A stretch of 64,000 nucleotides of DNA, from IMG/VR virus record IMGVR_UViG_3300037418_003103, one strand, 5' to 3'. Position 1 is the stretch's first letter, and every line of letters starts with the position of its first letter. The notes below the pieces were generated by a model. That model was not told the origin of the DNA and searched no databases. It saw nothing but the letters and a program-made list of their open reading frames with translations. A program made the translations under genes and the position numbers. This DNA is from a virus. Lineage: Duplodnaviria; Heunggongvirae; Uroviricota; Caudoviricetes. Positions 1,089 through 21,257 of this stretch are shown here, piece after piece.

Positions 1089-1125
1089 TGCAAATATAAG
1101 ATTATTTTTTAAAAGAGCCAAATTG
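1089..1125 (-). promoter_or_regulatory. conserved Bacteroidetes-type promoter (-33 TTTG / -7 TAnnTTTG), phage motif copy
   Basis: tgcaaatataagattatt...ccaaattg on plus strand; reverse complement gives TTTG-N20-TATATTTG upstream of ATG at 1067. Confidence 0.55.
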
Positions 1126-1226
1126 TTATTTTTAAAGATTAAAAGATTGTGAATGGCTAATCAGTTAGTGTACCAGTTGAAATAGACTGAACAAACCACT
1201 GATTGTTCTTTTGAGGAAAAATACAG

Positions 1227-1355
1227 AGATGAGAGCAGGAGTCGAACCTGCAACCTATGAGTACACCGAGGGGCTTATTCCCGTCACCTCATAGCTGTGG
1301 ACTGCAGTAACCCAGATTAGACGTCTGGTGCCTCTACCAATTTGGCCATCTCATC
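1227..1355 (-). tRNA. tRNA-like gene (type II, Leu-like D-arm AATTGGTAGAG) with about 45-nt extra sequence
   Basis: 7/7 acceptor pairing GATGAGA/TCTCATC, T-arm GCAGG-TTCGACT-CCTGC, D-arm present; total 128 nt, too long for a normal tRNA; the anticodon could not be resolved. Confidence 0.5.
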
Positions 1356-1529
1356 TATAAAAGAAAACAGAAGCCCCGTTACAGTGATTACGAGAACCTC
1401 ACATTAGTTCTCTTCTTGTGACAGGAAACACCCATCCATGATCATCTCCTTCAAACATCAGTGTAACGACTGACCACCTTCGATTTAATACGAGACTGCG
1501 GTGTTGTTCTCCAGAGAACTTCTGTTTAG

Positions 1530-1618
1530 ATCCACATACAGGACTCGAACCTGTGACCTCTACTTAAAGGAATGACCCAATCGTTTCAGTGCTCTAACAC
1601 CAACTGAGCTAATGTGGA
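1530..1618 (-). tRNA. tRNA-like gene with about 15-nt extra sequence in the anticodon region
   Basis: acceptor TCCACAT/ATGTGGA 7/7, D-arm GCTC-AGTTGGTGTTA-GAGC, T-arm ACAGG-TTCGAGT-CCTGT, variable loop AGGTC; no intact anticodon stem could be found. Confidence 0.5.
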
Positions 1619-2037
1619 CTCCATAAAATCTCCTTTGTTTACAGTTGTAATAACAGTTTATTATGCCTTCACTGTTTTGCGGCATCTATATTACAACTGT
1701 TCACATTGGAAATTGATTACTAATAGGGTGGTTCATGAAAGCCTCACTGTACATACAGCAGCGTATCCCCTAATTAAACGTATACGTCCTATCTATAATC
1801 AAATAATTTATCCCTCTGCATACAATTGCAATACATTCCTCAACACCTGCGCAGGCAATTGTTACCTCAACTGATTGGTCACTGTACCAATTAAGTCTTT
1901 AGTGCTCAGTGTATAGTAATGAAAAGTGTATTGCAATTGCTCAATCCTTGGGAGCTGATTAATAGAAGCTATTTTGTAACTATGCTGTACTCCTTTCGGT
2001 ACATACAACTATGTCACTATTAATCAGGTAGTTTCAC

Positions 2038-2165
2038 ATCTTATGATAGGGCTCGAACCTATACTTGGTACCCGTTGTGACGCTTATTAAGCGAAGCAGT
2101 GCTATTTCCATACGCTTACTCTATTACTCACTCACGAATCGCTCTACCAATTGGGCAACATAAGA
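2038..2165 (-). tRNA. tRNA-like gene with about 45-nt extra sequence
   Basis: acceptor TCTTATG/CATAAGA 7/7, D-loop AATTGGTAGAG, T-arm ATAGG-TTCGAGC-CCTAT; middle segment is 78 nt where about 32 would be expected. Confidence 0.5.
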
Positions 2166-2303
2166 AGTCTTTATATCTACATTGAGATGATGCATTAATA
2201 CTATTTTTAATATCTGTTATTTTATCACTTAGTCTTCAATCAGTTTACGTCCATAACTAAGAGTGATAGGCAAATATACTACAATTAATTGAGACGGAAA
2301 AAT

Positions 2304-2552
2304 TTACTTTCGTAATGAATTAATAAATTTATCAACTTCCATTAGATTGGTGATGTCCTTCTTGAATGGATTTTCTCTGTAATGAAATTTTAAAAATTTT
2401 AACAAGAGAAATCGCATCTCATCTTCACTTATGGACATCGCAGTTTTATAAACCTTTTTAAACCAATCCCACTCTTTCTTTTGAAAAGAATCAGCCTTCG
2501 CGCCCAGCACTTCTTCTATCTCAGAATCAGGTACTTCTTCAAATTTTTTCAT
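2304..2552 (-). CDS. hypothetical protein
   Basis: 82-aa ORF in co-directional array. Confidence 0.45.
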   Translation of the reverse strand: MKKFEEVPDSEIEEVLGAKADSFQKKEWDWFKKVYKTAMSISEDEMRFLLLKFLKFHYRENPFKKDITNLMEVDKFINSLRK

Positions 2553-2571
2553 AACTAGTGTAATTTAGCAT

Positions 2572-3042
2572 TTAAAACCCATAGATTACTGAGACCACAT
2601 TATCATTAACTTTGATAGTTCCTATGTCGTCGAAGCTATCTCCTCTCCAACGGATGCTACCATTAAGAACCACACCCCACTTTTTAAAGAAGTTATTAAT
2701 CAGATATTCTAGCCACTCAACATAATTGTAGAATTTCTCTCCGCCATCCCACTCCAATTCACCATTATCATTGATGATCCATTGACACCATAATCCTGGC
2801 TGTGTCTTTGGTGGCGTATTGTAGTCAAGAACAGACCTATCTTCTATATCCTGATTGAAGAACTCACCCTCAACTCCATAATCCCCGTCCAGACTATGTT
2901 TTCCCTTGTAGAGTTCCTGTAATATATTTACATCTCTTTTCATCCTGCGTGATTCAGAAAACTGATTGATGTAAACGGTTTGCTTCATTGTAAGTGAAGG
3001 AGTAATTGAAAGACTGCCTTCAAAGTCGGTTGTGTAGCCCAT
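2572..3042 (-). CDS. hypothetical protein
   Basis: 156-aa ORF; promoter motif 3066-3102 lies 27 nt upstream of ATG. Confidence 0.55.
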   Translation of the reverse strand: MGYTTDFEGSLSITPSLTMKQTVYINQFSESRRMKRDVNILQELYKGKHSLDGDYGVEGEFFNQDIEDRSVLDYNTPPKTQPGLWCQWIINDNGELEWDGGEKFYNYVEWLEYLINNFFKKWGVVLNGSIRWRGDSFDDIGTIKVNDNVVSVIYGF

Positions 3043-3065
3043 TTCTATATTTTTAAGTAATTAAT

Positions 3066-3102
3066 AATGCAAATATAAGACTAATTTTTGATTCTACCAA
3101 AT
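3066..3102 (-). promoter_or_regulatory. conserved phage promoter motif copy
   Basis: tgcaaatataagactaatttttgattctaccaaattt. Confidence 0.55.
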
Positions 3103-3612
3103 TTATTTTAACTCATACAAGTGAAAACATATTACATATTGAAAATCATTCCCGAAATCTTCATCATCCAAGTATTCATGTTGTGGATTAAGTTTTCCTA
3201 TGTAAGTACCCCATTTATGCCAGCGCCAACCACCGCCCTTGCCTTTGTTTTCTTTATCTTGGTAAACAGGCGTCATGGTTAAAAAGAACTTCCGATTAGG
3301 ATCTTCCATTTCTTCTTTGAAATACTCTTTTAATTGGTCTACGCTGTCGGCCACCCCATATTGGGCTTTATTATAATCTGGTGCAAAGACTTCATAGGAA
3401 TTCTTAAATGGAATGCTGAAAACTCTCTCATCAATATTATATTCTATAAATTCATTGTATGAGAAATTGAAGTCTAAATTGCATTGATAAATGCCGTCGC
3501 CATACTCCATTAATCTTTCATCGCATTGAGGTATATACTTAAAGTTATTTTCCTCAGCAATCTTTTTCCTTCTTTCTATTTCTTTTCGATTTGGTGTTAA
3601 ATTTACAAACAT
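3103..3612 (-). CDS. hypothetical protein
   Basis: 169-aa ORF. Confidence 0.55.
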   Translation of the reverse strand: MFVNLTPNRKEIERRKKIAEENNFKYIPQCDERLMEYGDGIYQCNLDFNFSYNEFIEYNIDERVFSIPFKNSYEVFAPDYNKAQYGVADSVDQLKEYFKEEMEDPNRKFFLTMTPVYQDKENKGKGGGWRWHKWGTYIGKLNPQHEYLDDEDFGNDFQYVICFHLYELK

Positions 3613-3740
3613 AGTATTTTATTTTATGTTAGTTAATAGATATGCTTCCAATATGGCAGAACTAGTCGGATGGCTTATATAATCTCCATCAGCATCTACG
3701 TCAAGTACTTTGGTTGCTGCTTCTAATATCCACACGGATG

Positions 3741-3929
3741 TTATTTGTTTTCAAATTGTTCAACTTCTTCATAAGAAAGTATTTCCGTATTCGTGATTCT
3801 TTCACTTGCGCTCCTGTCAGGAAAATAAGAGAAGCTGTAATCCATGTTATTAATTATATCCTCAATTTCTTCACCTTCTTCCAGAATAGCTTCAATGTTG
3901 GCAGTGACCTTTAAAATAACTGTTTTCAT
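3741..3929 (-). CDS. hypothetical acidic small protein
   Basis: 62-aa ORF directly downstream of promoter copy 3945-3980. Confidence 0.45.
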   Translation of the reverse strand: MKTVILKVTANIEAILEEGEEIEDIINNMDYSFSYFPDRSASERITNTEILSYEEVEQFENK

Positions 3930-3944
3930 ACTTTTAATTTTTAT

Positions 3945-3980
3945 GCAAATATAAGACTAATTATTGAAACTACCAAATTA
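3945..3980 (-). promoter_or_regulatory. conserved phage promoter motif copy
   Basis: tgcaaatataagactaattattgaaactaccaaatt. Confidence 0.55.
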
Positions 3981-4790
3981 ATGTTTTTCTCTCTCAGCTT
4001 CCCTCTTGTATCCGTTTTTCCTATAAGGCGCTATGAAAACCACTCTTGTATCACCCCTTCCAACTCCAACATGCCTTAGTGCCAAGTGTCCACTAACGTC
4101 AAATCCCTCTGAACGAATATAAGTTACATTCCAGTCGGAATTGATAAGAATAAACTTCATATCCGTATTGTTAAGGATCTTTCCAGACTTCTGAGTGCCG
4201 TACCTTGAATTGGGTTGAACTTCCCTAACCTCCACTTCCGATAAGAATATAAAGCAGAGCAGGGCAAATACCTTATGCTCGAAGTATTCTATGTTATCAT
4301 CAAATTGATCCAGAATTACTTCTTCTCCACCCAATGCTCGAAGTTTATCATACTCACCCATTATGGAAAGGCCTGTGTCTAAATTTGCTCTCCATAAATT
4401 CCACTTGAATCCCAGCCAATTAAAATCCTTACCATCATAAACCTCTCCTTTAAAAAAGAAAATACCGACCTTTAGCGTATCTCCCACTCTTTTAATTCGC
4501 AGTATCTCATTATCTGGAAGAAGATAAGTCTTTGTAGATCCATCTATATGTTTCTTGAATATGCCATAATTGTATGGCTTCTTTAATTTAAGGAAGGATA
4601 GGCTTTTCATTACATTTGCAGATACAATGTATCTCTCACTATCCCCTAATAAAAAATTGTCCAGCTCTTTCTGAGGATCGGTTTCAGGTGTAATCAAATC
4701 TGTATAGGCCAGCAGGTGGTTAGCTATCACCCTTTGACGAAGTGACTGGTCTGCTAAAAATAACTTTCCTACATGATTATTAACTTTCAT
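3978..4790 (-). CDS. hypothetical protein
   Basis: 270-aa ORF; degenerate promoter 4793-4838 abuts ATG (leaderless). Confidence 0.55.
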   Translation of the reverse strand: MKVNNHVGKLFLADQSLRQRVIANHLLAYTDLITPETDPQKELDNFLLGDSERYIVSANVMKSLSFLKLKKPYNYGIFKKHIDGSTKTYLLPDNEILRIKRVGDTLKVGIFFFKGEVYDGKDFNWLGFKWNLWRANLDTGLSIMGEYDKLRALGGEEVILDQFDDNIEYFEHKVFALLCFIFLSEVEVREVQPNSRYGTQKSGKILNNTDMKFILINSDWNVTYIRSEGFDVSGHLALRHVGVGRGDTRVVFIAPYRKNGYKREAEREKH

Positions 4791-4792
4791 GC

Positions 4793-4838
4793 TGCAAATT
4801 TAAGACTAATAATTGAAAGGGAAAAATTATTTTCATTG
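4793..4838 (-). promoter_or_regulatory. degenerate promoter copy; -7 TAAATTTG lies 4 nt from ATG
   Basis: gctgcaaatttaagactaataattgaaagg. Confidence 0.4.
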
Positions 4839-5045
4839 AAAAAAATCCTCAGCTTTGAGAATAAATCTCTCATCTGACATCTTCATCAATTTATCCTTCG
4901 TTTCAGTATCAAACCATGCAGATAATCTATTACCGTCATTGTCGTCTGATAAATTATATAGGCCTCTAGCGGCACCATCACCTTCATTAAGGCATATTCC
5001 GTTTACCTCTCTTAGCACTTTCATAATATTATTTATTATATTCAA
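4833..5045 (-). CDS. hypothetical protein
   Basis: 70-aa ORF. Confidence 0.4.
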   Translation of the reverse strand: MNIINNIMKVLREVNGICLNEGDGAARGLYNLSDDNDGNRLSAWFDTETKDKLMKMSDERFILKAEDFFQ

Positions 5046-5319
5046 AAATTATTTCTTCTGGAATGTAGTAAGCCAGTTCGCATAAGTAATTTATACCCTC
5101 TGTTCTATCAGAAGTTCTATATGCGCCACCAACGTGGCATCTTTTTATATTATCAGTGAAACGACAGAGGTAACTGGTTTGACCATTGATCTGACGTTTA
5201 AATGGCCTATTATTACCTTGCAAGTCTTTTCTTATATTTGGATAGTCAATTATGGCCACGGCCTCGCCGCTCCCTGTTTTAACCAGAACTTTTTGGCCTA
5301 AGACGAATTCTTTTTTCAT
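5029..5319 (-). CDS. hypothetical protein
   Basis: 96-aa ORF; promoter-like 5322-5365 abuts ATG. Confidence 0.5.
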   Translation of the reverse strand: MKKEFVLGQKVLVKTGSGEAVAIIDYPNIRKDLQGNNRPFKRQINGQTSYLCRFTDNIKRCHVGGAYRTSDRTEGINYLCELAYYIPEEIIFEYNK

Positions 5320-5321
5320 AC

Positions 5322-5365
5322 TGCAAAAATAAGAGTAAAAATTGGAATAGAAAAATTTATTTTAG
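5322..5365 (-). promoter_or_regulatory. degenerate promoter copy
   Basis: tgcaaaaataagagtaaaaattggaatagaaaaattt. Confidence 0.4.
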
Positions 5366-5367
5366 TG

Positions 5368-5886: not shown

Positions 5887-6099
5887 TTATTTCATCCACC
5901 ACTCGTCATCATCCACTTCTTCTAATTTGGTTAGAAGAGTAGAATCTTCAAATTCAACTACTCCCTTCTCTCTTACAGTGTCTAAGTAATTACCTATTTC
6001 GAGATCATTGGATACCTGTTTTAAGGCCACCGCAATTTCTTCTGCAGTGCCTTCACCTGTGATTGTGATTTGTATATTCATTTGATTTATTTTATACAA
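5887..6099 (-). CDS. hypothetical acidic protein
   Basis: 70-aa ORF; promoter copy 6096-6130 upstream. Confidence 0.45.
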   Translation of the reverse strand: MYKINQMNIQITITGEGTAEEIAVALKQVSNDLEIGNYLDTVREKGVVEFEDSTLLTKLEEVDDDEWWMK

Positions 6100-6130
6100 A
6101 TATAAGACTAATTATTTAAAGTACCAAAAA
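6096..6130 (-). promoter_or_regulatory. conserved phage promoter motif copy
   Basis: tacaaatataagactaattatttaaagtaccaaaaa. Confidence 0.5.
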
Positions 6131-6169
6131 ATAATGGCAAGTATTTTTCAACTTGTCATTACACTTATT

Positions 6170-7234
6170 TTAAGATAATACTAATTCATTCTTTCTTATA
6201 AGGATTCCTGCCTCATTAACAGCGAAGTTATAAGCGGCCATGTTCGCAGTATAAGCAGAACCCACCATCAGAGTTTCCTCGAAGCCATTTACTCTTTTTG
6301 GTTTGGCTCTGGTGTGTGTTGTCCAATGAGTAACACCTGAGAATAACCCGAACAAATTTTCTCCCTTATCAGCAATTTGATCATCAATACTTGCATACAG
6401 GGAATCCATGTGATTGATGGCCTTTGAAGTCTTCTTAGCTTGATCTTCCAAACTTGTAAATATTCTATCATGCCCAAGCACTTCTTTAACCATGGCATCT
6501 GCCAGATTCTTGGTAAGAGGCGTATTCATGAATTTTTGATAAACAAGCATTTGTTTCATGCTCTCAGATAAAGCTGTTTCAATGAGCACAGGCATTGTCT
6601 TTAGCTTTACTTCAAGCGTTGAAGTATGCCTGAACTTTGCCTCTCCTTTCTTATAGAATTTAAAGAATTGATTCTCACAGCTCATTACTTTATCTCCGAT
6701 ACCCACGCTAAGGCCAGTAGACCCATCATTGCTGTCAATGATAGTAACAAAGCGCTCGATTTCTTCATCTCCGATCTTATTAAAACCCTTTATGCCAAGT
6801 TGAAAAAATACCTTGCGGCCACCGTGCAGAGCACCTGCCTTTGTTACCCTGAGTGTATCGCCAAACTTTTCCATTCCACGCAACACCAATTCAACAACCT
6901 CGGCATTTTGAGATACAACATATCCCTCTTTACAGGTATTGAGTGCGTCGCCTGTTTTACTATTATAAAGACCGTAATAGGGTGAAGGAAACGCCTTGGC
7001 CCCCTCATTAGGAGTAATTGCTACCTTCCTAAGTCTTTTACGATCCTTGGCATCAGGATCATCTGAATTCTTAACCATTTTGAAAGTCACGTCATCCTGA
7101 TTAAAGCCAAACAGAACCCGCTTCTCAATAATAAAGTCAAGACCGTATTTTCTAAGCATCCGATTAACCTTATCTCTCAGGTGCTGATCCATACTAAGTT
7201 GAACATTATTAGCATCATTTGTTACAATTTCCAT
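6170..7234 (-). CDS. hypothetical protein (354 aa)
   Basis: long ORF; promoter-like motif 7255-7295 upstream. Confidence 0.6.
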   Translation of the reverse strand: MEIVTNDANNVQLSMDQHLRDKVNRMLRKYGLDFIIEKRVLFGFNQDDVTFKMVKNSDDPDAKDRKRLRKVAITPNEGAKAFPSPYYGLYNSKTGDALNTCKEGYVVSQNAEVVELVLRGMEKFGDTLRVTKAGALHGGRKVFFQLGIKGFNKIGDEEIERFVTIIDSNDGSTGLSVGIGDKVMSCENQFFKFYKKGEAKFRHTSTLEVKLKTMPVLIETALSESMKQMLVYQKFMNTPLTKNLADAMVKEVLGHDRIFTSLEDQAKKTSKAINHMDSLYASIDDQIADKGENLFGLFSGVTHWTTHTRAKPKRVNGFEETLMVGSAYTANMAAYNFAVNEAGILIRKNELVLS

Positions 7235-7254: not shown

Positions 7255-7295
7255 CTTTTATAAAGATAAGACTAATTTTGATAGTCTTACAAAAA
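7255..7295 (-). promoter_or_regulatory. promoter copy
   Basis: tttataaagataagactaattttgatagtcttacaaaaaaattt. Confidence 0.4.
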
Positions 7296-7305: not shown

Positions 7306-7611
7306 TTATTTGTTAAAATATTTATATAGGTATTCATAGATATTAATTAGATCACCTACAAAACAATCTCCCAAGGGCATTTCCTCAGTGACGCCCCAGT
7401 CAGATACGAAGAGAGTAATCACACCAAACTTGTACTCCAGACCTTTAACTTCTACTAGATTAGTATTAGTCTGTATTGTTAAAGATTCATCATCATTAAA
7501 ACCTATTCTCTTACAATCGAATAACATATTGCTAATGGCCATCGTTATATCAGAACGGAGTCTGTCATAAGCCTTATTAAAGTCAATCATCTTTTTCATA
7601 CTTTTATGCAA
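7306..7611 (-). CDS. hypothetical protein
   Basis: 101-aa ORF; promoter 7607-7642 upstream. Confidence 0.5.
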   Translation of the reverse strand: MHKSMKKMIDFNKAYDRLRSDITMAISNMLFDCKRIGFNDDESLTIQTNTNLVEVKGLEYKFGVITLFVSDWGVTEEMPLGDCFVGDLINIYEYLYKYFNK

Positions 7612-7642
7612 ATATAAGACTAATAGTTGAAAGTACCAAATT
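7607..7642 (-). promoter_or_regulatory. conserved phage promoter motif copy
   Basis: tgcaaatataagactaatagttgaaagtaccaaattt. Confidence 0.55.
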
Positions 7643-8256: not shown

Positions 8257-8529
8257 TTAGATAAAATAGATATCGCTTGATGGCCTGTAACCATGCTTCT
8301 TTTCAAATGTCTCAATCAATTCTCTGGCAACTTTCTTGCTTTCATCATTTCTGAGATCAGTTTTATAGTCAGCGGAAGATACGTGTTCAAGCCATTTTAT
8401 ACAGAGCCTTGTAAAGGATTGTTGTTTTGTACGGTGTTCATGAGACATGACTTCATTGAACTCGTTTTGATTCAAACTGAATGAGCTTACAAATTCGGTA
8501 ATATCCTTAACTGTTTTCTGAGTGTCCAT
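8257..8529 (-). CDS. hypothetical protein
   Basis: 90-aa ORF; promoter 8590-8626 upstream. Confidence 0.5.
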   Translation of the reverse strand: MDTQKTVKDITEFVSSFSLNQNEFNEVMSHEHRTKQQSFTRLCIKWLEHVSSADYKTDLRNDESKKVARELIETFEKKHGYRPSSDIYFI

Positions 8530-8589: not shown

Positions 8590-8626
8590 TGCAAATATAA
8601 GACTAATAATTGGGAATACCAAATTT
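8590..8626 (-). promoter_or_regulatory. conserved phage promoter motif copy
   Basis: tgcaaatataagactaataattgggaataccaaattt. Confidence 0.55.
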
Positions 8627-8688: not shown

Positions 8689-8931
8689 TTAAAAAATACT
8701 TCGTATAGAATCTCCACCAGGATAGCACTGGATTTTAGTCACTTGCAAGTCCCTTCCTATATGCTCATGAATTTTTTCCTCTGAATTATTTTTAAGGATG
8801 CTGGAGAGCATTTCTTCTGCTTCTTTTATTGTCAGGTAGTTCCTACGATAATTATTGGTGAAGGCCAGTCCTCTCACTCCATCCTGTTTAATGGCTGTAA
8901 TACTGTAGCGAGTATGAGTTTTTATTTTCAT
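8689..8931 (-). CDS. hypothetical protein
   Basis: 80-aa ORF; promoter at 8934-8975. Confidence 0.5.
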   Translation of the reverse strand: MKIKTHTRYSITAIKQDGVRGLAFTNNYRRNYLTIKEAEEMLSSILKNNSEEKIHEHIGRDLQVTKIQCYPGGDSIRSIF

Positions 8932-8933: not shown

Positions 8934-9017
8934 TGCAAATATAGGTTTATAAATTAAATCTACCAACTTTAATTAAAAATAAATTTGGTACTTTCAATAA
9001 TTAGTCTTATATTTGCA
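8934..9017. promoter_or_regulatory. divergent promoter pair (strand-switch point)
   Basis: minus-type motif 8934-8975 and its reverse complement aaatttggtactttcaataattagtcttatatttgca 8981-9017 on the plus strand. Confidence 0.55.
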
Positions 9018-9032
9018 TTAAATTAATCAGGC

Positions 9033-9155
9033 ATGATAATCGATAGAAAGATAATGATACATCAATCCCACGAATATTCACATAGTGTAAAAATAATTTG
9101 TCAGAATAAAAAAATAGTCTTATATTTGCATATCGAAAATAACAACTCAATATAA
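9033..9155 (+). CDS. possible small ORF (40 aa)
   Basis: ATG 16 nt after plus promoter; contains the second plus promoter copy (9105-9135) within its 3' end. Confidence 0.2.
   Translation: MIIDRKIMIHQSHEYSHSVKIICQNKKIVLYLHIENNNSI
9105..9135 (+). promoter_or_regulatory. plus-strand promoter copy
   Basis: aatagtcttatatttgcatatcg with TTTG upstream. Confidence 0.45.
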
Positions 9156-9496: not shown

Positions 9497-9685
9497 ATGA
9501 TTAACATAGCAGCTGTCATCATCGTATTTTTTATCTTTGGTGCCATTGACTTTATACTTAATTTAAACAATGCGAACCCAGAGGATGAACTGCAATTGGT
9601 AGAGCATTTTTTAAAGCTGACATTTTGGTGCCTAGTAGCTATTTTAATACTCTTTATAGCGAGCCACGGAGTCTTAACACCTTAA
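9497..9685 (+). CDS. small two-TM membrane protein
   Basis: 62-aa hydrophobic ORF on the plus strand. Confidence 0.4.
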   Translation: MINIAAVIIVFFIFGAIDFILNLNNANPEDELQLVEHFLKLTFWCLVAILILFIASHGVLTP

Positions 9686-9842: not shown

Positions 9843-10303
9843 GGTCTATTTTTCCTTAGTTTATCGTAGAGGGTAATACTGAGTGTAAGGAGTACAACAA
9901 TAGCGAAGACGCATCCTGCAGCTGTTCCCAGGTCTACCTGGCCAATTTCAATTAGATTCATAAGAATTGTATTTATTTTGCAAAGATATTAATTATTTTA
10001 TAATCAACCAAATATTATACAAACTTTCTTTTATGATTATATGTCTTCTTTACATAGGATGTTGTATTCATAGAGTTATGGTTGATAATCCTGTCTTCTA
10101 GTATACCCTTGGCTGGATTCTTCTTTATGATCTGAACAGCCTTCTTCTTGCTGGTAAAGTTCTTATACATGAGCAATTTTTAATAAACATACTCAAATAT
10201 TTACAAAGAAACAACTTATGGCTGGAAATGAAAATATTATACTTGGCCAAAAGTAGGTAAAAATATGAGTTATGGCCCTGAATAAAAAAGAAGCGGGCTG
10301 TAT

Positions 10304-10366
10304 TACTTCTTTTTGCCTGTAGGAAATTTAAACTAAGAAATTAGTTTAAGGTTGATATTCAGTGAC
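10304..10366 (-). repeat. 62-bp repeat R1 with 9-bp hairpin TTAAACTAA/TTAGTTTAA and TTGATAnTCA
   Basis: tacttctttttgcctgtaggaaatttaaactaagaaattagtttaaggttgatattca. Confidence 0.6.
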
Positions 10367-10376
10367 TTATGACTTG

Positions 10377-10604
10377 CTACCATTCAATCAAGTATTCCAT
10401 ATACTCATAAGCAAAACTAACGTCAAAACCATCTTTGATCAGCATATCCTTTACCTCAGGAGTTATATGAGTTAATCTTAAGTTGAACCTACCAATCTTG
10501 GCATATTCACGTATCTTATTAGCAACGTCTAGGTACTCGGCATTGATTACCTTAGGACGGCTCTCCTTGGTAAGCTTATGTATTTCTTCTTTACTTATTC
10601 TCAT
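10377..10604 (-). CDS. hypothetical protein
   Basis: 75-aa ORF; ATG 4 nt downstream of repeat R2. Confidence 0.5.
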   Translation of the reverse strand: MRISKEEIHKLTKESRPKVINAEYLDVANKIREYAKIGRFNLRLTHITPEVKDMLIKDGFDVSFAYEYMEYLIEW

Positions 10605-10607
10605 AAT

Positions 10608-10668
10608 TACTTCTTTTTGCCCGTAGGAAATTTAAACTAATAAATTAGTTTAACATTGATAATCAAGG
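10608..10668 (-). repeat. 62-bp repeat R2
   Basis: ttctttttgcccgtaggaaatttaaactaataaattagtttaacattgataatcaa. Confidence 0.6.
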
Positions 10669-10670
10669 TG

Positions 10671-10868
10671 TTATTCATTTGTTGATGGAGCTGCATCTGC
10701 ATCAGTATAAGTAAGAGGTACAAATATTCCTCTTTCATTACTAGGATAGGAATAGTAGATCCATCCACCTGGTACCCGAAGGATATTTACATCTATACTT
10801 GATAAAAGGCCTGTACTAACACTTAACCTGGTTGTTTCATGCAGCTTTAGTTCGTATATATTTTTCAT
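10671..10868 (-). CDS. hypothetical protein
   Basis: 65-aa ORF; repeat R3 45 nt upstream. Confidence 0.45.
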   Translation of the reverse strand: MKNIYELKLHETTRLSVSTGLLSSIDVNILRVPGGWIYYSYPSNERGIFVPLTYTDADAAPSTNE

Positions 10869-10916
10869 AGGATAAACCTACTACTAATTTTTCAATGATA
10901 CAACTTCTCATCAGAA

Positions 10917-10977
10917 TACTTCTTTTTGCCTGTAGGAAATTTAAACTAAGTTTTTAGTTTAGCATTGATAATCAATT
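10917..10977 (-). repeat. 62-bp repeat R3
   Basis: cttctttttgcctgtaggaaatttaaactaagtttttagtttagcattgataatcaa. Confidence 0.6.
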
Positions 10978-10984
10978 ACTTATA

Positions 10985-11022
10985 AAAAAGACATGCTTAC
11001 CCTCTGCCAACTGAGCTACACA
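10985..11022 (-). pseudogene. tRNA 5'-half fragment (acceptor + D-arm only)
   Basis: the reverse complement reads GGATGTG-TA-GCTCAGTTGGCAGAGG; no matching T-arm or acceptor 3' strand within 150 nt. Confidence 0.35.
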
Positions 11023-11261
11023 TCCGATTAAAAGAACTAAAAATTAAACCTGTCACTTACCATCGTGAATAATTACCAATTCCCTTCACTCGATTATTAG
11101 TCGAACTACTAAGTTTGCACCTCTGGGTTCTTAATTATTATCTCTACATCAAACAACGCTATTGGTAATAGCTGTAAACCTTAACCTCCTTAGTATTTCT
11201 ACCTCGATTATGATTAATTTATTACTGTTTGACCTCAAGCAGGTTTAAAAGAACTAAATTT

Positions 11262-11300
11262 TGTATGCAGTGAAGGAGTTGAACCTCCTGGCCTTTTTGA
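11262..11300 (-). other. tRNA-like T-arm/acceptor fragment
   Basis: the reverse complement reads GGAGG-TTCAACT-CCTTC-ACTGCA; no convincing 5' half found. Confidence 0.25.
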
Positions 11301-11552
11301 TTGGAGAGTGAGGGGGTTAACCTTACTCACTTTACTAATACAATCAAATACTGCGCAGTATTTGATGCTTAAAAACCAATCAAAGTGTACTTCCCTTGTC
11401 ATTTTTACCTGTTCCGTCAAACAGAATGACTTATACTATACTGCACATCTAACTATTAGGCCACAAATATACTACTAATATTTTAAAAAACCAAAACAAT
11501 TCTAAATAACACAATTTCTGCATGCTAACACTCCCTGTGTTATTGAGCAAAA

Positions 11553-11664
11553 AATAAGACTATTTTTCAAAAAATAGTCTTAAAAATGTAAAAAAGCACC
11601 AAATATTATTTAGTCTTATTTTTGAGAGGGGTGTAAAATTAGTCTTAAATTTACAAAAAATTTG
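11553..11664. promoter_or_regulatory. cluster of four TAAGACTA/TAGTCTTA promoter-core motifs in an ORF-free region
   Basis: aataagactatttttcaaaaaatagtcttaaaaatg (palindromic pair), tagtcttatttttg, tagtcttaaattta; no ORF over 60 aa on either strand across 11460-12000. Confidence 0.4.
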
Positions 11665-12003
11665 ACTGAAGCATAATATTCACTTGCATAAATGGCTGTT
11701 TTTACATGTATTCAATTTTCATATCTAGCAGCATTAAACATTTTTTTACATGCCTCCAGTAAGCTAAATCCTGATGTAAAGAGACTTCTTATTACTCATT
11801 CCCAACACAAATTCCTACTTCTTCCCACTTTCCGTACCTCTCTACCACCTCTTTTTCTCTGCTCCTGATACTTCTAGCTCATTTTCCTCTAAGTACCTCT
11901 AGAAAGTCCATACGTGCTAATACAGGGTACAAAAGGTACACTTGCTTAATACCTGCCAGTCTGAGCAAGCTGTCCGTAATGGGGCTTAAAATGCGAAATA
12001 AGA

Positions 12004-12273
12004 CTACTCTCCTGATCTCTTACTCCCTCTCTTCTTCCTGGCCAGTCCCCTCTTTATTCTCCTGCTCCGCTCCTCCCGTATTGCCCCCATTGCCATCTCC
12101 GTCGGCCTAGCAAGGCCCAGCATAAGTTCATCTAGAGGCAGGCCCTCTCTTCTTGCATGTAGGTAGAGGAATATCCCCACCTTCCCCAGAGCCTCTCTAC
12201 CATCAAACTCCAGTAATTCCCTAAGTCCCTGATATAACTTCTCTTGTTCTTTATTTAATCCCTTGTTCTTCAT
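12004..12273 (-). CDS. hypothetical protein, basic C-terminus (GC-rich island)
   Basis: 89-aa ORF; local GC about 48% against about 33% for the window. Confidence 0.5.
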   Translation of the reverse strand: MKNKGLNKEQEKLYQGLRELLEFDGREALGKVGIFLYLHARREGLPLDELMLGLARPTEMAMGAIREERSRRIKRGLARKKRGSKRSGE

Positions 12274-12328
12274 ATGATTATTTTAATCCTCTTCTGCTTC
12301 TTTTTGATTGATGTGGTTCGGGATGTGA

Positions 12329-12724
12329 CTAGGGCCTGTATCCCCCTGCAAGTATCAAACCTCTTATCTTCTCCACTTCCATCTCTCCACGCTCGCTCAG
12401 ACCCTCATTATTCCAATTCGTATCAGTATCATGAAGAGCCTGAACTCCACTCAGAAACTGCCTGCCCAGATCCTTCAGGCCATCTGGCAAGAGTTCAAAG
12501 GCCTCCGCAGCTGATATGCCAACGCTAAAGTCAGGATACATCTTATCCAGCTTCCTCTGTAACTCAGGACTCAGGTGCCTGCCAATGGCACAACCTGGTG
12601 TCCTCTCGCTGCTGGGAGCATACATGCAACCAATCCTGGGTGAATAAGATCTGTTTCCCAGATTATAAAAACTGGCCGTGTCCTCCAGGAACGCCAGTTG
12701 CTTCTCTTGTCTAGTCATTTTCAT
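12329..12724 (-). CDS. hypothetical protein (GC-rich island)
   Basis: 131-aa ORF. Confidence 0.5.
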   Translation of the reverse strand: MKMTRQEKQLAFLEDTASFYNLGNRSYSPRIGCMYAPSSERTPGCAIGRHLSPELQRKLDKMYPDFSVGISAAEAFELLPDGLKDLGRQFLSGVQALHDTDTNWNNEGLSERGEMEVEKIRGLILAGGYRP

Positions 12725-12729
12725 GCTCT

Positions 12730-12942
12730 TTAATTTAATGCCCGCTTTATAATGTAACCCAGCAAATTCTCTGGCTTCTTGAACTCAATCCAATAACCCT
12801 CAGAATAGGGGTGCGAACTCATTACCAGATAAATTTCCTCATGCAACCCCTTCAATTCATCATACTTCTCGCTTGCCTTCTTATAAGCAAGCTCTCCGTC
12901 TTTGCTCCAGATTCCCACTGGAAAGTATATTGACTCTGTCAT
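12730..12942 (-). CDS. hypothetical protein (GC-rich island)
   Basis: 70-aa ORF. Confidence 0.45.
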   Translation of the reverse strand: MTESIYFPVGIWSKDGELAYKKASEKYDELKGLHEEIYLVMSSHPYSEGYWIEFKKPENLLGYIIKRALN

Positions 12943-12944
12943 AA

Positions 12945-13292
12945 TTATTTGAATCTATATCCCTTTAATAAATTACCTCTGCTCTTTAATAACTCACCCG
13001 CTAATTCTGAGTCTCTCTTAAGATAAGAGACTTCATAAGGACAAATCCTGTCGGTCAGCGGTGACATCCCAGTACCAATTACCCATTGATACAGAAGCCC
13101 CTCCTTACAGAGCTGGGTGAGAACTCTTCTTACACTAGGGCAAGTCCTATAAAAGGCCTGGCCATCTTGAACTGGATACTCCAAGGCCTCCGCAACCTCC
13201 ACGGCAGTATACTTACCCTCATGCCTCTCAAAGAAGGCAATTACCTCTTTCTTAAGTTCTCTTCGCTTGCTTGATTCTTTCTCGCTTGGCAT
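12945..13292 (-). CDS. putative winged-helix DNA-binding protein (GC-rich island)
   Basis: 115-aa ORF; YTAVEVAEAL...VRRVLTQLCKEGLL resembles a wHTH recognition helix and wing. Confidence 0.4.
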   Translation of the reverse strand: MPSEKESSKRRELKKEVIAFFERHEGKYTAVEVAEALEYPVQDGQAFYRTCPSVRRVLTQLCKEGLLYQWVIGTGMSPLTDRICPYEVSYLKRDSELAGELLKSRGNLLKGYRFK

Positions 13293-13299
13293 AAACTGA

Positions 13300-13746
13300 T
13301 TACTTAACCCCTGGTTTAATATTGGTGGAGTGCTTCACACGCTCATCATCCACATAAAAAAGTTCAACTCCCTGAAATATAAGATACATCCAGTCATACG
13401 TCTCCACACCCTCATAAAATTCATCACTGAACTCATCCCTATTTGTTTTTTTATCGGGGCCAAACATAAGTCTCTCCAGGAATTTAAACTCTTCCAGTGT
13501 TATCTGTTTATCTTTAAAGCAACCCATCAGGTGCTCCCAATCTAGCATAACAGCCCACTTGCCAGGGCAAGGCTTTAACTTATTCAACAGTCTACAGTAC
13601 TTCTCTGTATGAGGATTATCGATAGACACCCTTACGCTCCTGGACGTATATCCATCAGCATCCCCTATCATGTAGTGGTAGGTAAGGAGATAGTAGGGGT
13701 TTATTCTCTTTTTATTTACTACCTTCTTATTTCGTATTCGTATCAT
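13300..13746 (-). CDS. hypothetical protein
   Basis: 148-aa ORF. Confidence 0.5.
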   Translation of the reverse strand: MIRIRNKKVVNKKRINPYYLLTYHYMIGDADGYTSRSVRVSIDNPHTEKYCRLLNKLKPCPGKWAVMLDWEHLMGCFKDKQITLEEFKFLERLMFGPDKKTNRDEFSDEFYEGVETYDWMYLIFQGVELFYVDDERVKHSTNIKPGVK

Positions 13747-13767
13747 TGATCCTTTTTTACTCGTAAT

Positions 13768-14130
13768 TTATGCTTCAAGAGGAATTCTAAAAACTTCATA
13801 AGGATATTCCCTATCTAAAATAGACGCCCTCTCGTTCTTCGTATATGAAAATCCAATACTAAGGTTTCCTCCTACAAGTGGAAAGCAATCATCAATGAAA
13901 ATGTATCTGAATGGAATACAAGCGGCTCTTTCACCCAATCCAATTCTTAGAGTCGTCTCGTTCTTAAACCAAATACACCTGTAGGTAATATCATAAACCT
14001 TAAACTCTATTACCCTTGAAAACCCATAATCCTCTGCACCAGTGTACTTCGGATTCACACCAGCCTTGGTAAGAAAGTCAAAAAGTTCTTCTAATCCCAC
14101 CGCCTGAAAGTTTTTACTGGATGTGTTCAT
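13768..14130 (-). CDS. hypothetical protein
   Basis: 120-aa ORF. Confidence 0.5.
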   Translation of the reverse strand: MNTSSKNFQAVGLEELFDFLTKAGVNPKYTGAEDYGFSRVIEFKVYDITYRCIWFKNETTLRIGLGERAACIPFRYIFIDDCFPLVGGNLSIGFSYTKNERASILDREYPYEVFRIPLEA

Positions 14131-14387
14131 ACTTTTATTATAAATCGTTTCCGCCTTGTGCCTTCTATTTTTATTACTCTTTCATCAAACTCTCCTATGT
14201 TTCTTTCAATTTCATAAAACACTTTAATCGCTTGATCCTTGCTTTTAAAATTAAAGACATGTGAGCCCTTTTTACCTCTTGGCCTCTTCCATTCGGAGGA
14301 AGGAAATAATTCTGCTCCTCCGTCTTTCTTGAAATTTATAAAAGAGCCATCGGTTAATACCGCCGTTTCGCTATCAATAAACTTCAT
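14127..14387 (-). CDS. hypothetical protein
   Basis: 86-aa ORF; 4-nt overlap with upstream gene. Confidence 0.45.
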   Translation of the reverse strand: MKFIDSETAVLTDGSFINFKKDGGAELFPSSEWKRPRGKKGSHVFNFKSKDQAIKVFYEIERNIGEFDERVIKIEGTRRKRFIIKV

Positions 14388-14390
14388 ATA

Positions 14391-14948
14391 TCAAAGCACT
14401 TTGGTCTTACAATTAGCAATATCCAATTCGACAGCCGACATACCATTAGCCCAGTGTCCAGGGCCAAAGAATAAGGGGGTTGGATATCCTCTATCTGTCA
14501 AGTATTCAATTGCAAAACTATAACTTAGTGGATCTTCCCAAGCATAATCCTCTCCATCCAAACCCATTGAAAAATCATCATATATGGTGAGCGATAAGCC
14601 ACCTCTTTCACTGGAGTAAAAAATACGTATTGCGTCCTGAAACTTTTCAGTTTTGATTGGGTCCTTATAGTAAAAAATCTTAGAAAGATTAAGAATCTCT
14701 TCATCTGTTATTCTAGAGAAATCATTAAGAAGCAGCTTGTAATTAGCATCCTTAAAGTAAAAGGAATTACGCAAGCCTCCATTAGCTGCTGTAAAGAACA
14801 TGCTGGCATTATCATTAATAACACCAAGAAGCTTCTCTGATCGACTTCCCTTTAAGTGTTCAAATGCTCCACCCTCAACCAGTACTGGTTGACCAATATA
14901 CTTTGTAAAGACGCTAGCTATTTCTTCATGGGTTAATTTGTTATCCAT
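14391..14948 (-). CDS. hypothetical protein
   Basis: 185-aa ORF; promoter copy 14962-14998. Confidence 0.55.
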   Translation of the reverse strand: MDNKLTHEEIASVFTKYIGQPVLVEGGAFEHLKGSRSEKLLGVINDNASMFFTAANGGLRNSFYFKDANYKLLLNDFSRITDEEILNLSKIFYYKDPIKTEKFQDAIRIFYSSERGGLSLTIYDDFSMGLDGEDYAWEDPLSYSFAIEYLTDRGYPTPLFFGPGHWANGMSAVELDIANCKTKVL

Positions 14949-14961: not shown

Positions 14962-14998
14962 CTGCAAATATAAGGTTATTAATTTAATCCGCCAAATT
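14962..14998 (-). promoter_or_regulatory. conserved phage promoter motif copy
   Basis: tgcaaatataaggttattaatttaatccgccaaatt. Confidence 0.5.
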
Positions 14999-17275: not shown

Positions 17276-17280
17276 AAAAA

Positions 17281-17751: not shown

Positions 17752-17765
17752 TTATAATTTATTTA

Positions 17766-17802
17766 CTGCAAATATAAGATTATTAATTTAAACTACCAAC
17801 TT
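17766..17802 (-). promoter_or_regulatory. conserved phage promoter motif copy
   Basis: tgcaaatataagattattaatttaaactaccaacttt. Confidence 0.5.
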
Positions 17803-18500: not shown

Positions 18501-18517
18501 ATATTTTATTAATAGTG

Positions 18518-18883
18518 TTAAAAAGATTTAATTTCAAAAATTAGACTCCTTGCATGGGATACTTTTTTACCGTCCTGGCCATGCATCCAATCCTCAAAAT
18601 AAGATAAGATTTCATCTATTTCATCAAGCCTATTATTAATTTCTTCCTGCTTGTCATTCGAGTACCTCTTTGCAGCTTCAACGCATTTTTCTACCGTTGG
18701 CTCAATGATAAGGTTACCTATATTGTCATATAGTAGATCGAAAACTTTTTCAAATAATTTTAATTCAGTTCCATTAATAAATTCTTTCCTAGAAAATTTA
18801 TGCTTCAGCGCTGGGGGAGGAGTAAACATACTTTTGGTCTGATCTTCATTAGATGGCTTTATGTTCTGTTCATTCTTTTCCAT
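18518..18883 (-). CDS. hypothetical protein
   Basis: 121-aa ORF. Confidence 0.5.
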   Translation of the reverse strand: MEKNEQNIKPSNEDQTKSMFTPPPALKHKFSRKEFINGTELKLFEKVFDLLYDNIGNLIIEPTVEKCVEAAKRYSNDKQEEINNRLDEIDEILSYFEDWMHGQDGKKVSHARSLIFEIKSF

Positions 18884-19157
18884 TTTCTATACTTTTTGTG
18901 TATTCAATAGTATCTTTATCACCTAGTTTCATGCTAGATTTTAATTTAGTTTTTTCGTTTAAGTATTTTCGTGAAATGAGCCTCATCGTATTCCAAAAGT
19001 CTTGTTCTTTTTTAAACGTCTCCCGCCATTTATTTATTACCAGTAGTCTTTGAACAGACAAGCTATATTCCTGATCTGTCAAGATCCTAATATCCTTCAG
19101 GAGCCTTTTATTCTCTTCTTTTAACTTCTGATACACGCTACGACTTACACTACTCAT
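18870..19157 (-). CDS. hypothetical basic protein
   Basis: 95-aa ORF. Confidence 0.45.
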   Translation of the reverse strand: MSSVSRSVYQKLKEENKRLLKDIRILTDQEYSLSVQRLLVINKWRETFKKEQDFWNTMRLISRKYLNEKTKLKSSMKLGDKDTIEYTKSIENGKE

Positions 19158-19168
19158 AATATTTGTAT

Positions 19169-19390
19169 TTATTCAAAATCAACAATTTCAGATTTTCCAC
19201 ACTTATCGCAAACATAACTGCTCCAAGTATCAGTATCTAGTGTACAACGATAGGTATGAGTGCATTTAGATTGATACTCAATTATCTCATTTTCAACGGT
19301 TTCTATACTAGCCTCCAATTCTTTTAAGGTTTCCTTAAATATAAGGAGCTGTATCTCGCTCACTAATAATTGTTTGTCGTTCTTAATCAT
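19169..19390 (-). CDS. hypothetical protein with C-terminal zinc ribbon
   Basis: 73-aa ORF; CTHTYRC...CDKCG. Confidence 0.45.
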   Translation of the reverse strand: MIKNDKQLLVSEIQLLIFKETLKELEASIETVENEIIEYQSKCTHTYRCTLDTDTWSSYVCDKCGKSEIVDFE

Positions 19391-19439
19391 ATCCCTGGGT
19401 TATTTTATTAGAAGGTAAGGCTCTTTTCTCATCTTTAAT

Positions 19440-19853
19440 TTAAAGTACCAACAAATCTGTTTCACCCTTTAAAAAACTTACAAGTTTATTTACCTTAGTT
19501 GATCTACGTGACAGCCTTGTGTACCTATTCACAAAGTTCTCAATTGGCGAGGAATAGTAGTTTAGCCTCTCCCTAGAACATGAAATATTAAACTCTCTAG
19601 GGTCTACATTAACAATGTTAGTACATGCTCTTAGATGAACCGTTTTATAAACCCTGGTGGCACACTTCTCAATTAATAATTTAGCTCTGTCCGTTAAACA
19701 GTTTCCAGTCATTTGTCCGTAAATACACTTTTCTATATCATTACCATCTAAGGTTTTCAAGTTTAATCTAGCAAGTTCTTTTTTAGTTGCATATTTCTTA
19801 AGATTAGTAGCCTCCATTACCACTAGCTCTTCAAGTTTAAGATTTCTATTCAT
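19440..19853 (-). CDS. hypothetical protein
   Basis: 137-aa ORF. Confidence 0.5.
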   Translation of the reverse strand: MNRNLKLEELVVMEATNLKKYATKKELARLNLKTLDGNDIEKCIYGQMTGNCLTDRAKLLIEKCATRVYKTVHLRACTNIVNVDPREFNISCSRERLNYYSSPIENFVNRYTRLSRRSTKVNKLVSFLKGETDLLVL

Positions 19854-20231
19854 TAATTTGTTTTTTAATTATTTTTTCATGAAGTTCTTTAGTCTTTGCA
19901 ATTCGTTCATCTCTCTCTAAAGGATTTTCATAATCATCTAGCTTAAGCATAAAGTCTATTTGCTTTTGAGTAAGATTCTCCGATATATGTGCTTCTTGCC
20001 ATTTACCTTTTGTTTCATTTAAAACCCAAATTATTGAGGTTTATATCAACTTAAAAGGTAAAGATATAAATTTCTTCAGAATAAACAAGACCTAACTATT
20101 ATTTCCTTACTATCAAATAGCTTAACCTAGGATCATTCAGAACTCTTTCCATTTCCGAACTTAATACGCCATAAATATAAAAACCTTTCTGCTTCACTTA
20201 TAAAATTCGAATGAAGCAAATACAAATAAAG

Positions 20232-20519
20232 TTATTCATATTGAAATGATTTACCTGTGTAACCCTCTAATTGAAGGTTCTCATGAAAGCCACAGCCGTT
20301 TACTTCACCAATATCTCTATTTAATTCATATGCGGCTTTTTTATGATGCCAAAATGAAGTGCTTATTATACCTTTTTCATCAATAGAATGCAAGTTTATT
20401 TCACAAGGCTGGCCGCACTTGCAATATATTATTGGTCTCAACTGATTGCCATTTTGGTCAACAGCACTCTTCCAACAGGGGTAATTATTTCGTTCTTCGT
20501 TTGCCTTTGGTATTAGCAT
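20232..20519 (-). CDS. hypothetical Cys/His-rich protein
   Basis: 95-aa ORF. Confidence 0.45.
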   Translation of the reverse strand: MLIPKANEERNNYPCWKSAVDQNGNQLRPIIYCKCGQPCEINLHSIDEKGIISTSFWHHKKAAYELNRDIGEVNGCGFHENLQLEGYTGKSFQYE

Positions 20520-20585
20520 ATTATCCTATATTAATGTAAAATTTTAGCTCAACCGTATTTTCTTCTAAAAATACATCCATTGTTT

Positions 20586-20825
20586 TTATTTTATTGGCTT
20601 AAAACGAGATAAATACTCCAGTTCTTTTTTATCCGCCTCTTCTCTTGAAATGGGATTACCACTTTCATCCAAATCAATCCAAACTCCTTTTGGCAGAGCT
20701 TCTAACATAGCAAGCCTTTCCTCCTGTTCAGGTGATAACGGTCCTAAGTTATTTTCTATATTGTATTCTTTTGCTGCTCTAAGAATGCCAGCTTGAATTC
20801 CTCCATTCATTATTTGCGTTGACAT
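20586..20825 (-). CDS. hypothetical protein
   Basis: 79-aa ORF. Confidence 0.45.
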   Translation of the reverse strand: MSTQIMNGGIQAGILRAAKEYNIENNLGPLSPEQEERLAMLEALPKGVWIDLDESGNPISREEADKKELEYLSRFKPIK

Positions 20826-20871
20826 ATATTTTATTTTACAGCGTAATTATTAGGAAGGTACAAAGTTATCA

Positions 20872-21216
20872 CTAAGCCTCTTCTATCAAATTTTCTGTGT
20901 AATTAATATCAAAAATGACCATTCCGTTAATATCCGTTTCCGCCTCAACATTTACATACCCCTCCTGTTCTTCATACTTACCATCATGAAAAATATCTTG
21001 ATTTTCACCATTATGTTTCACATAGCCAACGCCCTCTATCATTTCATCTACACCATAGCGAGAAATTTGAGAAGCAATGTTTTCAGCTAAACTTTCATAA
21101 TCGGCATCACTATCTATAAATTCTTTATAGCCCTCCCATAATTCTTTAAAAGAATCTGAGTTTTCATCAAACTCAATAATAATTTCCTTTTCAAGGGTTA
21201 CTTTAAATTTTTGCAT
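20872..21216 (-). CDS. highly acidic protein (possible DNA mimic)
   Basis: 114-aa ORF, D/E-rich; promoter copy 21224-21257; immediately downstream of the methyltransferase gene. Confidence 0.5.
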   Translation of the reverse strand: MQKFKVTLEKEIIIEFDENSDSFKELWEGYKEFIDSDADYESLAENIASQISRYGVDEMIEGVGYVKHNGENQDIFHDGKYEEQEGYVNVEAETDINGMVIFDINYTENLIEEA

Positions 21217-21223
21217 TTTTTTT

Positions 21224-21257
21224 ACAAATATAAGAGTAAAGATCTAATCCGCCAAAC
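21224..21257 (-). promoter_or_regulatory. promoter copy
   Basis: tacaaatataagagtaaagatctaatccgccaaacatt. Confidence 0.45.

Follow-up and report, generated by a model that had tools for sequence, protein, structure and literature searches.

A family of probable Bacteroidota sigma-A-type promoters in the predicted early region of an uncultured 345-kb phage

The early promoters of phages T4 and T5 and the host-takeover module of SPO1 are early arrays of large virulent phages that are read by the unmodified host RNA polymerase (RNAP). In Bacteroidota, the -7 box of the sigma-A promoter spans -12 to -5 and transcription starts 4-5 nt after it (PMC9723704, PMC6847099). AT-rich promoter motifs centred at -18 and -28, as well as A-rich, Shine-Dalgarno-poor translation initiation regions, are known from Flavobacterium johnsoniae (PMC6847099), and in Flavobacterium psychrophilum expression is highest from the class of promoters that have both TTTG at -33 and a 3′ extension rich in C and A (PMC9723704). 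Here we describe a family of 36-nt motifs with a -33/-7 architecture in a 64-kb stretch (the window) of IMG/VR record IMGVR_UViG_3300037418_003103, which belongs to a 345-kb jumbo phage (the longest contig encoding the DUF932 protein of the window is 345,454 bp). The motifs are likely to be strong promoters for the primary RNAP holoenzyme of the host, containing Bacteroidota sigma-A; the polymerase, start sites, promoter strength and timing are those that we infer from the motif and its surroundings. Literature searches on this motif, on phage promoters in Flavobacteria or Bacteroidota and on RNAP structures of the phylum returned nothing relevant.

Scans used the consensus with ≤3 or ≤10 mismatches and a position-weight matrix (PWM), with strong copies defined by a score ≥38. 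The PWM recovered 20 copies in the window, 12 strong and four weaker ones within 1089-21258 and four weaker ones beyond (Table 1), while ≤3 mismatches to the consensus returned only four sites. One more copy, whose spacer is 21 nt long, brings the total within 1089-21258 to 17, in line with the original prediction of at least 15 copies across 1089-21257, limits with which the outermost copies agree exactly. At PWM ≥14, where the window has 20 sites, 100 first-order Markov simulations gave 0.01 on average, and TTTG-N17-23-TANNTTTG is found at 21 places where 4.4 are expected. The copies had been described as near-identical with a constant TAAGACTAAT core, which overstates their uniformity: the 12 strong copies average 79% pairwise identity (61-97%) and TAAGACTAAT is exact in seven of them. 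At least seven further strong copies lie in the next 6.4 kb beyond the window start.

Alignment of the copies by the published distance rule for the -7 box places the predicted +1 three bases after the motif. The motif then consists of an A-tract at -43 to -41, TTTGG at -36 to -32, a 20-nt spacer and TATATTTG at -12 to -5, followed by CA. T-35, T-34, G-33, G-32, A-24, A-23, T-18, A-17, C-14, TATATTTG, C-4 and A-3 are invariant in the strong copies, 9/12 of which have A at +1, and similarity among copies ends abruptly outside about -43 to +1. The -7 element reads TA..TTTG in all 20 PWM copies, with G at neither -10 nor -9, and so has the TAnnTTTG (TAHHTTTG) form; TTTG-N20-TA is found in 11 copies within the span, and TTTT or GTTG takes the place of the -33 box in three. 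The proposed architecture of TTTG, 20-nt spacer and TATATTTG is thus borne out, and both elements and their spacing match published Bacteroidota promoters. All copies have the orientation of the open reading frame (orf) or RNA gene that follows and lie 0-58 nt upstream of it, many adjoining the preceding stop codon.

Predicted leaders are mostly 4-24 nt long, with 51-58 nt at two copies and 0 nt at three (ATG 4790, 5319 and 8931), where the predicted +1 coincides with the A of the start codon, so that the transcripts are predicted to be leaderless. Two of these had been proposed as such beforehand (orfs 3978-4790 and 5029-5319, where the motif ends at 4793 and 5322, respectively) and the third, at 8934, is new. 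The JGI gene calls (L113), made on a metagenome contig that matches the window at 100% identity and used as an independent check, agree on all three start codons. Of 388 promoter-like sites from the window and other viral loci, 27 have an ATG precisely at the predicted +1, compared with about six at neighbouring offsets, and a second ATG peak lies at about +16 (leader of ~15 nt). This spike is evidence for the start-site rule as well as for leaderless starts, and leaderless transcripts at some copies are a well supported prediction.

Table 1 Promoter copies and related boxes in the window (leader lengths and start sites are predicted).
Coordinates	Strand	Class and variant	Associated features
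1089-1124	-	strong, TAATCT variant	predicted +1 1086; orf 237-1067, 19-nt leader
2269-2304	-	weak, TTGTAG, TAG at -15 to -13	upstream of tRNA-like genes 2038-2165, 1529-1618, 1226-1355
3068-3103	-	strong	5′ end adjoins stop codon of orf 3103-3612; orf 2572-3042, 23-nt leader
3944-3979	-	consensus, 0 mismatches (strong)	orf 3741-3929, 12-nt leader
4793-4828	-	strong, TTTT for TTTG at -33, TAAATTTG at -7	+1 = A of ATG 4790, orf 3978-4790; predicted leaderless; L113 gene call agrees
5322-5357	-	weak, TACTCT, TATTTTTG	+1 = A of ATG 5319, orf 5029-5319; predicted leaderless
6095-6130	-	strong, downstream of DUF932 gene	64-aa gene 5887-6081 (JGI call); preceded by hairpin + T-run 6132-6161
7259-7295	-	21-nt-spacer variant, -7 box TATCTTTA	upstream of DUF932 gene 6170-7234, leader about 22 nt
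7607-7642	-	strong	orf 7306-7599, 5-nt leader
8590-8625	-	strong	orf 8257-8529, 58-nt leader
8934-8969	-	strong, TAAACC variant	+1 = A of ATG 8931, orf 8689-8931; predicted leaderless
8982-9017	+	consensus (strong)	40-aa orf 9033-9155, 13-nt leader
9095-9130	+	strong, within orf 9033-9155	orf 9157/9214-9450 and orf 9497-9685
11462-11497	-	weak, TAGTAG	upstream of orf-poor 10985-11447 with tRNA-like fragments
11555-11653	one -, three +	four TAGTCTTA boxes	two followed by -7-like boxes (TATTTTTG, TAAATTTA)
14963-14998	-	strong, TAACCT	heads ~3-kb gene run 14948 down to 12004, 12-nt leader
17767-17802	-	strong, TAATCT	heads gene run 17751 down to 15003, 13-nt leader
21223-21258	-	weak, TACTCT, TTTGTA	first promoter of the array in transcription direction; gene run 21216 down to 17802, 4-nt leader
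48014-48049	-	weak	orf 47269-47997
52357-52392	-	weak	upstream of two hairpin repeats and tRNA-like gene 51988-52110
53120-53155	-	weak	upstream of orf 52416-53066
57858-57893	-	weak	orf 57362-57841, 14-nt leader

Features of the motif outside the two boxes also occur in host promoters. In the F. psychrophilum transcription start site (TSS) table (PMC9723704), TATATTTG is followed by CA in 34/103 cases and preceded by T in 51/103. Scanning one genome per bacterial or archaeal species for TTTGG-N12-14-TAGTCTTATATTTG returned 43 bacterial loci, 32 of them in Bacteroidota. The promoter of tRNA-Met(CAT) in Flavobacterium or other Flavobacteriales accounts for 21 of the 43. Further matches lie before the tRNA-Asn gene of Kaistella and before paired tRNA-Gly and tRNA-Leu genes of a Saprospiraceae genome; in most of the genome matches the motif continues with CA, though the pattern did not demand it.

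The window has a G+C content of 33%, with nearly all genes encoded by the minus strand. The best matches of a 391-aa protein come from jumbo phages of Tenacibaculum (pT24, PTm1) and Lak megaphages of Prevotella. Shine-Dalgarno-like 4-mers are depleted upstream of 130 start codons (5% vs 14% background) and the leaders are A-rich, with A peaks at -13 to -10, -6/-5 and -3, resembling the initiation region of F. johnsoniae. Relatives, initiation regions and genome matches to the extended motif all fit a Bacteroidota host, probably Flavobacterium-like, as had been argued from the motif. No direct host link (CRISPR spacer or prophage) was found for this phage, megablast of 20 kb of the window against a phage collection gave no match and thus no close DNA relative there, and an IMG/VR peptide-pattern search with the 270-aa and DUF932 proteins found no relatives.

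Several observations weigh against promoters for the host holoenzyme, or against sigma-A as the sole reader of the whole motif. The motif can also be parsed as a sigma-70 promoter (TTGGTA-17-TATATT, scoring 9/12), so that the motif alone cannot exclude a host outside Bacteroidota; this parse leaves the invariant TTTGCA unexplained, and sigma-70-type promoters show no enrichment in the window (80 vs 69 expected). Intrinsic terminators are not enriched (11 vs 10.2 expected) and none lie between units. Jumbo phages often encode their own RNA polymerases, and the analysis covered 64 kb and a further 6 kb or so of the 345-kb genome; the family could then consist of promoters for a phage-encoded polymerase, virion-packaged or not, of the phiKZ or AR9 kind, that merely resemble the host consensus. 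This is highly improbable in view of a bipartite motif that reproduces the -33/-7 consensus and spacing of the host exactly, the use of the same sequence at host tRNA genes and a set of 147 window orfs with no polymerase or sigma domain. The remaining points concern the hexamer TAGTCT at -18 to -13. It occurs at 0/127 generic viral-contig sites (TTTGG-N18-20-TATATTTGCA), where G at -13 is preferred, and at 0/19 generic promoters of the fetched bacterial loci, a set too small for a useful profile. The F. psychrophilum TSS table has no GTCTTATA in a promoter context, and L119 and L120, relatives bearing DUF932, are without TAGTCT. The hexamer is thus not a general host feature, which makes a purely sigma-intrinsic reading uncertain; as a universal Bacteroidota 'extended -7' element it is ruled out by the 127 generic sites and the F. 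psychrophilum table.

With the copies read as host-type promoters, the array comprises at least 24 copies over at least 28 kb, with about 0.9-3 kb between promoters. Their density, 17 copies in 20 kb and seven in the next 6.4 kb, shows the clustering expected of an early promoter class. The array drives small ORFan genes, the DUF932 gene and tRNA-like genes; its orfs encode 40-354 aa, and a Pfam search of 40 of the ~50 orfs in the promoter-dense region found DUF932 only, the rest being sub-threshold noise. Host-type consensus and ORFan gene content together make early timing plausible, and the array is most likely an early region. Within the window, transcription switches to the plus strand only at a promoter hub (8934-9130), where the copies at 8934 (minus strand) and 8982 (plus strand) stand back-to-back with 12 nt between them and a third, on the plus strand, follows at 9095.

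In the mechanism that we propose, sigma-A region 4 would contact TTTGG at -36 to -32 and region 2 would contact TATATTTG at -12 to -5, with affinity raised by the A-tract at -43 to -41 and by AT-rich patches near -28 and -18. Transcription would start 5 nt past the G of TTTG, mostly at A, giving mRNAs with A-rich leaders of 0-25 nt lacking a Shine-Dalgarno sequence, three of them leaderless. Such a layout would suit early expression and host takeover, since expression would precede any phage factor. The conservation beyond the minimal sigma elements may comprise three layers: host-promoter features (CA after the -7 box, T before it, AT-rich -18 and -28 patches and, as in the most active host class, a real -33 box); the lineage hexamer TAGTCT, which most likely acts as a spacer or 'extended -7' signal through RNAP/sigma-A or DNA shape; and a phage-specific upstream spacer, presumably homogenised by duplication and gene conversion.

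TAGTCT marks multi-copy families in other viral contigs (13 copies in 11 kb of L027, 16 in L116 and four in L115) and is also found in families of L025/L049, L057 and L016. L016, L049, L057, L115 and L116 have a DUF932 protein in common with the window, and some share more genes, while 1 Mb of loci with generic promoters has almost nothing in common with it. At two promoters with orthologues in L115 (DUF932 74% identical), TAGTCTTAT(A/C)TTTG is perfectly kept in diverged flanks, and TAGTCT persists across phages whose common protein is only about 50% identical. Absence from the 127 generic sites marks the hexamer as lineage-specific, and we read it as a lineage trait under selection. L235 and other loci among L122-L241 have multi-copy families of their own with the same -33/-7 parts and other hexamers at -18 to -13, as in the seven TTTGGTAGATTC..TTTTCGTATATTTGCA copies of L235, where it is TTTTCG. 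TTTGGTAG(T/A)TTCAA recurs in several unrelated contigs, and a strict motif scan of metagenome contigs gave no match. Generic sites with TAG at -15 to -13 (8 vs 1.3 expected) lie at 21-64 kb and at tRNA-like genes; the TAGTCT copies being dense at 0-21 kb and the TAG generics elsewhere, two spatially separate promoter classes coexist in the window.

In the canonical copies TAGTCT is a single asymmetric box in fixed position and orientation beside the -7 box, with no dyad partner. Fixed position, asymmetry and occurrence in host tRNA promoters are best fitted by direct reading of the hexamer by RNAP/sigma-A or through DNA shape. A more specific proposal, possible yet doubtful, is that TAGTCT is a discrete, hitherto undescribed promoter element of some Flavobacteriia-type hosts, recognised by sigma-A/RNAP or a dedicated factor, that marks tRNA-type promoters and was copied by a jumbo-phage clade onto dozens of probably early promoters. 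If so, it would capture transcription at stable-RNA levels, possibly under growth-rate control, and would set this class apart from the generic promoters of the phage.

The original prediction offered a phage-specific regulator site as one cause of the extended conservation. In its fuller form, this would be a promoter with an embedded operator, TAGTCT(TA) at -18 to -11, bound by a phage or host regulator that switches the class as a block, for example shutting off early genes while leaving generic promoters elsewhere unaffected. Two spatially separate promoter classes would suit such control, as would a hexamer that is lineage-specific rather than universal and is kept at orthologous promoters; boxes also occur outside the canonical copies, four TAGTCTTA boxes being gathered in 100 bp (11555-11647) and an inverted pair lying at 7267-7289. 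An inverted TAAGACTA stands in the spacer of the copy at 7259-7295, and TAGTCTTATCTTT of that copy is kept in the L115 orthologue. Repressor-operator systems, however, have a dyad or repeated half-sites at fixed spacing and a cognate DNA-binding protein, and neither was found in the canonical copies and the array orfs scanned. Orientation of the box and its distance to the -7 element are fixed without a dyad partner, and the inverted pairs (7267/7282 and 11555/11575) differ in spacing (7 and 12 nt), so that a dimeric operator built from TAAGACTA/TAGTCTTA was rejected. The same 16-mer occurs in host tRNA promoters, and TAGTCT in related phages. No helix-turn-helix (HTH) or other DNA-binding domain was identified in the array orfs scanned (40 of the ~50), and local phmmer with Cro and SinR as queries for an HTH protein found nothing. 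The only HTH_3 match of the window is to an orf outside this set, and its DnaA_C match, at 56593-56910, is far from the array. An operator at TAGTCT is therefore unlikely, and a site specific to a phage regulator is not upheld.

The orf at 56593-56910 (105 aa, minus strand) matches Bac_DnaA_C (Pfam; local phmmer E 3e-5), and a phage-borne DnaA domain IV without the rest of the protein could disturb initiation of host replication. The TAGTCTTA cluster is flanked by the leftward promoter at 11462 on one side and by a region that seems to read rightward on the other, and its two boxes followed by -7-like boxes may be weak rightward promoters, or else regulator sites.

Recent duplication was the other cause originally offered. 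The upstream spacer GGTAsTTTCAAT is common to copies in this genome while other phages have versions of their own, which suggests spread or homogenisation of copies and looks like concerted evolution. The proposal is supported in part, recent duplication being secondary at most: the core is kept at the two orthologous promoters despite diverged flanks, which indicates selection more than recency, and similarity has sharp limits at about -43 and +1. L115, the one 4.2-kb relative in which junctions were compared, is a mosaic when set against the window, with homologues of window genes from 19.4 kb, 8 kb and 6-7 kb brought together within 4 kb and joined at promoter copies. The copies might accordingly be mobile regulatory cassettes, near-identical mainly through duplication and recombination and serving as junctions for module shuffling, with positions beyond the -33/-7 elements as hitch-hikers. 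The joins in L115 and the phage-specific spacer are what this account predicts, and the PeSLs of T4-like phages (PMC2839356, PMC4122927) provide a precedent. The limits of similarity coincide, however, with the expected RNAP footprint, TAGTCT survives at ~50% protein identity, and cassette behaviour would complement promoter function rather than replace it; as the main cause of the conservation it is distinctly improbable.

Of the 12 copies tested, 11 lack the composite stem-loop by which PeSLs are defined. Folding of the 65 nt upstream of each of the 12 gave z-scores of -1.1 to +1.5, with a hairpin and U-run only at 6095. A composite terminator/promoter was thus rejected for the family, and the likeness to PeSLs is one of analogy, not membership. 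At 6095, the array's sole composite terminator/promoter, the terminator-like hairpin and T-run run into the -33 box; the equivalent site of L115 (4135-4170) has a hairpin of differing sequence, the structure being kept and the sequence not.

Four tRNA-like genes, all on the minus strand, lie downstream of the weaker promoter variants at 2269 and 52357 (Table 1). Rfam tRNA matches span 129, 89 and 122 nt, with 13-50 extra nt in the anticodon/variable region, and the fourth gene (51988-52110) comes from the intron mode of ARAGORN ('tRNA-Stop(tta)' with a 34-nt intron, an unreliable anticodon assignment). Two related hairpin repeats, gacgaagttactaaactttaattgataaaaacaaccacttcgtc and aatgaagttactttaattgataaaaaacacacttcatt, occupy 52110-52350 (minus strand) between the promoter at 52357 and this gene. 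In the orf-poor segment 10985-11447 (minus strand), a D-arm-like GTAGCTCAGTTGGCAGAG near 11010 and, spanning about 11262-11447, a T-arm (GGAGGTTCAACTCCTTC) with an acceptor pair (GTGCAGT/ACTGCAT) were recognised by eye; the latter may be a tRNA with a ~110-nt insertion. Rfam found nothing in 9.4-12.3 kb.

Three 69-nt direct repeats (10302-10370, 10606-10674 and 10915-10983; 86-87% identical, spacing 304 and 309 nt) each hold a 9-bp inverted repeat (TTAAACTAA-N4-TTAGTTTAA) overlapping a weak -7-like TAAATTTC on the minus strand, and the TAAATTTC boxes lie about 20 nt upstream of small orfs (10015-10170, 10377-10604 and 10671-10868). These repeats look like an operator plus weak promoter in triplicate, a control element distinct from the main family. 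A GC-rich island at 12000-14000 (43% vs about 33% in the rest of the window), in a region of minus-strand genes (12004-14948) with no Pfam matches, may have been horizontally acquired.

The copies are candidate strong, compact promoters for Bacteroidota, some predicted to be leaderless, and could serve as genetic tools in a phylum that has few. The array marks the probable early/host-takeover region of an uncultured 345-kb phage, for which sequence alone supports assignment to a Bacteroidota, probably Flavobacterium-like, host, and the hexamer, which host tRNA promoters also have, offers a small lead on recognition by the unusual Bacteroidota sigma factor.

Among known systems, the closest likeness is to host promoters, namely F. 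psychrophilum class SM2 and the TAHHTTTG promoters of F. johnsoniae. Both boxes (-33 TTTG and -7 TAnnTTTG), the ~20-nt spacing and CA after the -7 box are as in Bacteroidota sigma-A (sigma-A/ABfr) promoters, as are AT-rich patches near -18 and -28, A-rich leaders without Shine-Dalgarno sequences and the occurrence of near-identical sequences at tRNA genes. The phage copies differ in being far nearer the consensus and far more uniform, in carrying G-16 and C-14 (TAGTCT), unlike the host data sets examined, and in lacking the enriched G at -13 of generic phage sites. With PeSLs (PMC2839356, PMC4122927) the array shares conserved early-type promoters between ORFan genes in a plastic region and mosaic junctions at the motifs (in one relative, L115), while a terminator stem-loop is present at one copy (6095) only. 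Apart from the conserved hexamer, the array is ordinary in kind, consensus host-type promoters before early genes being textbook phage biology. It resembles the early arrays of T4, T5 and SPO1 in its many close-set, apparently very strong promoters with a consensus extended beyond the minimal sigma elements, placed before small genes of unknown function, and differs from them in its Bacteroidota sigma type and in some units predicted to be leaderless, timing and strength here being read from the DNA alone.

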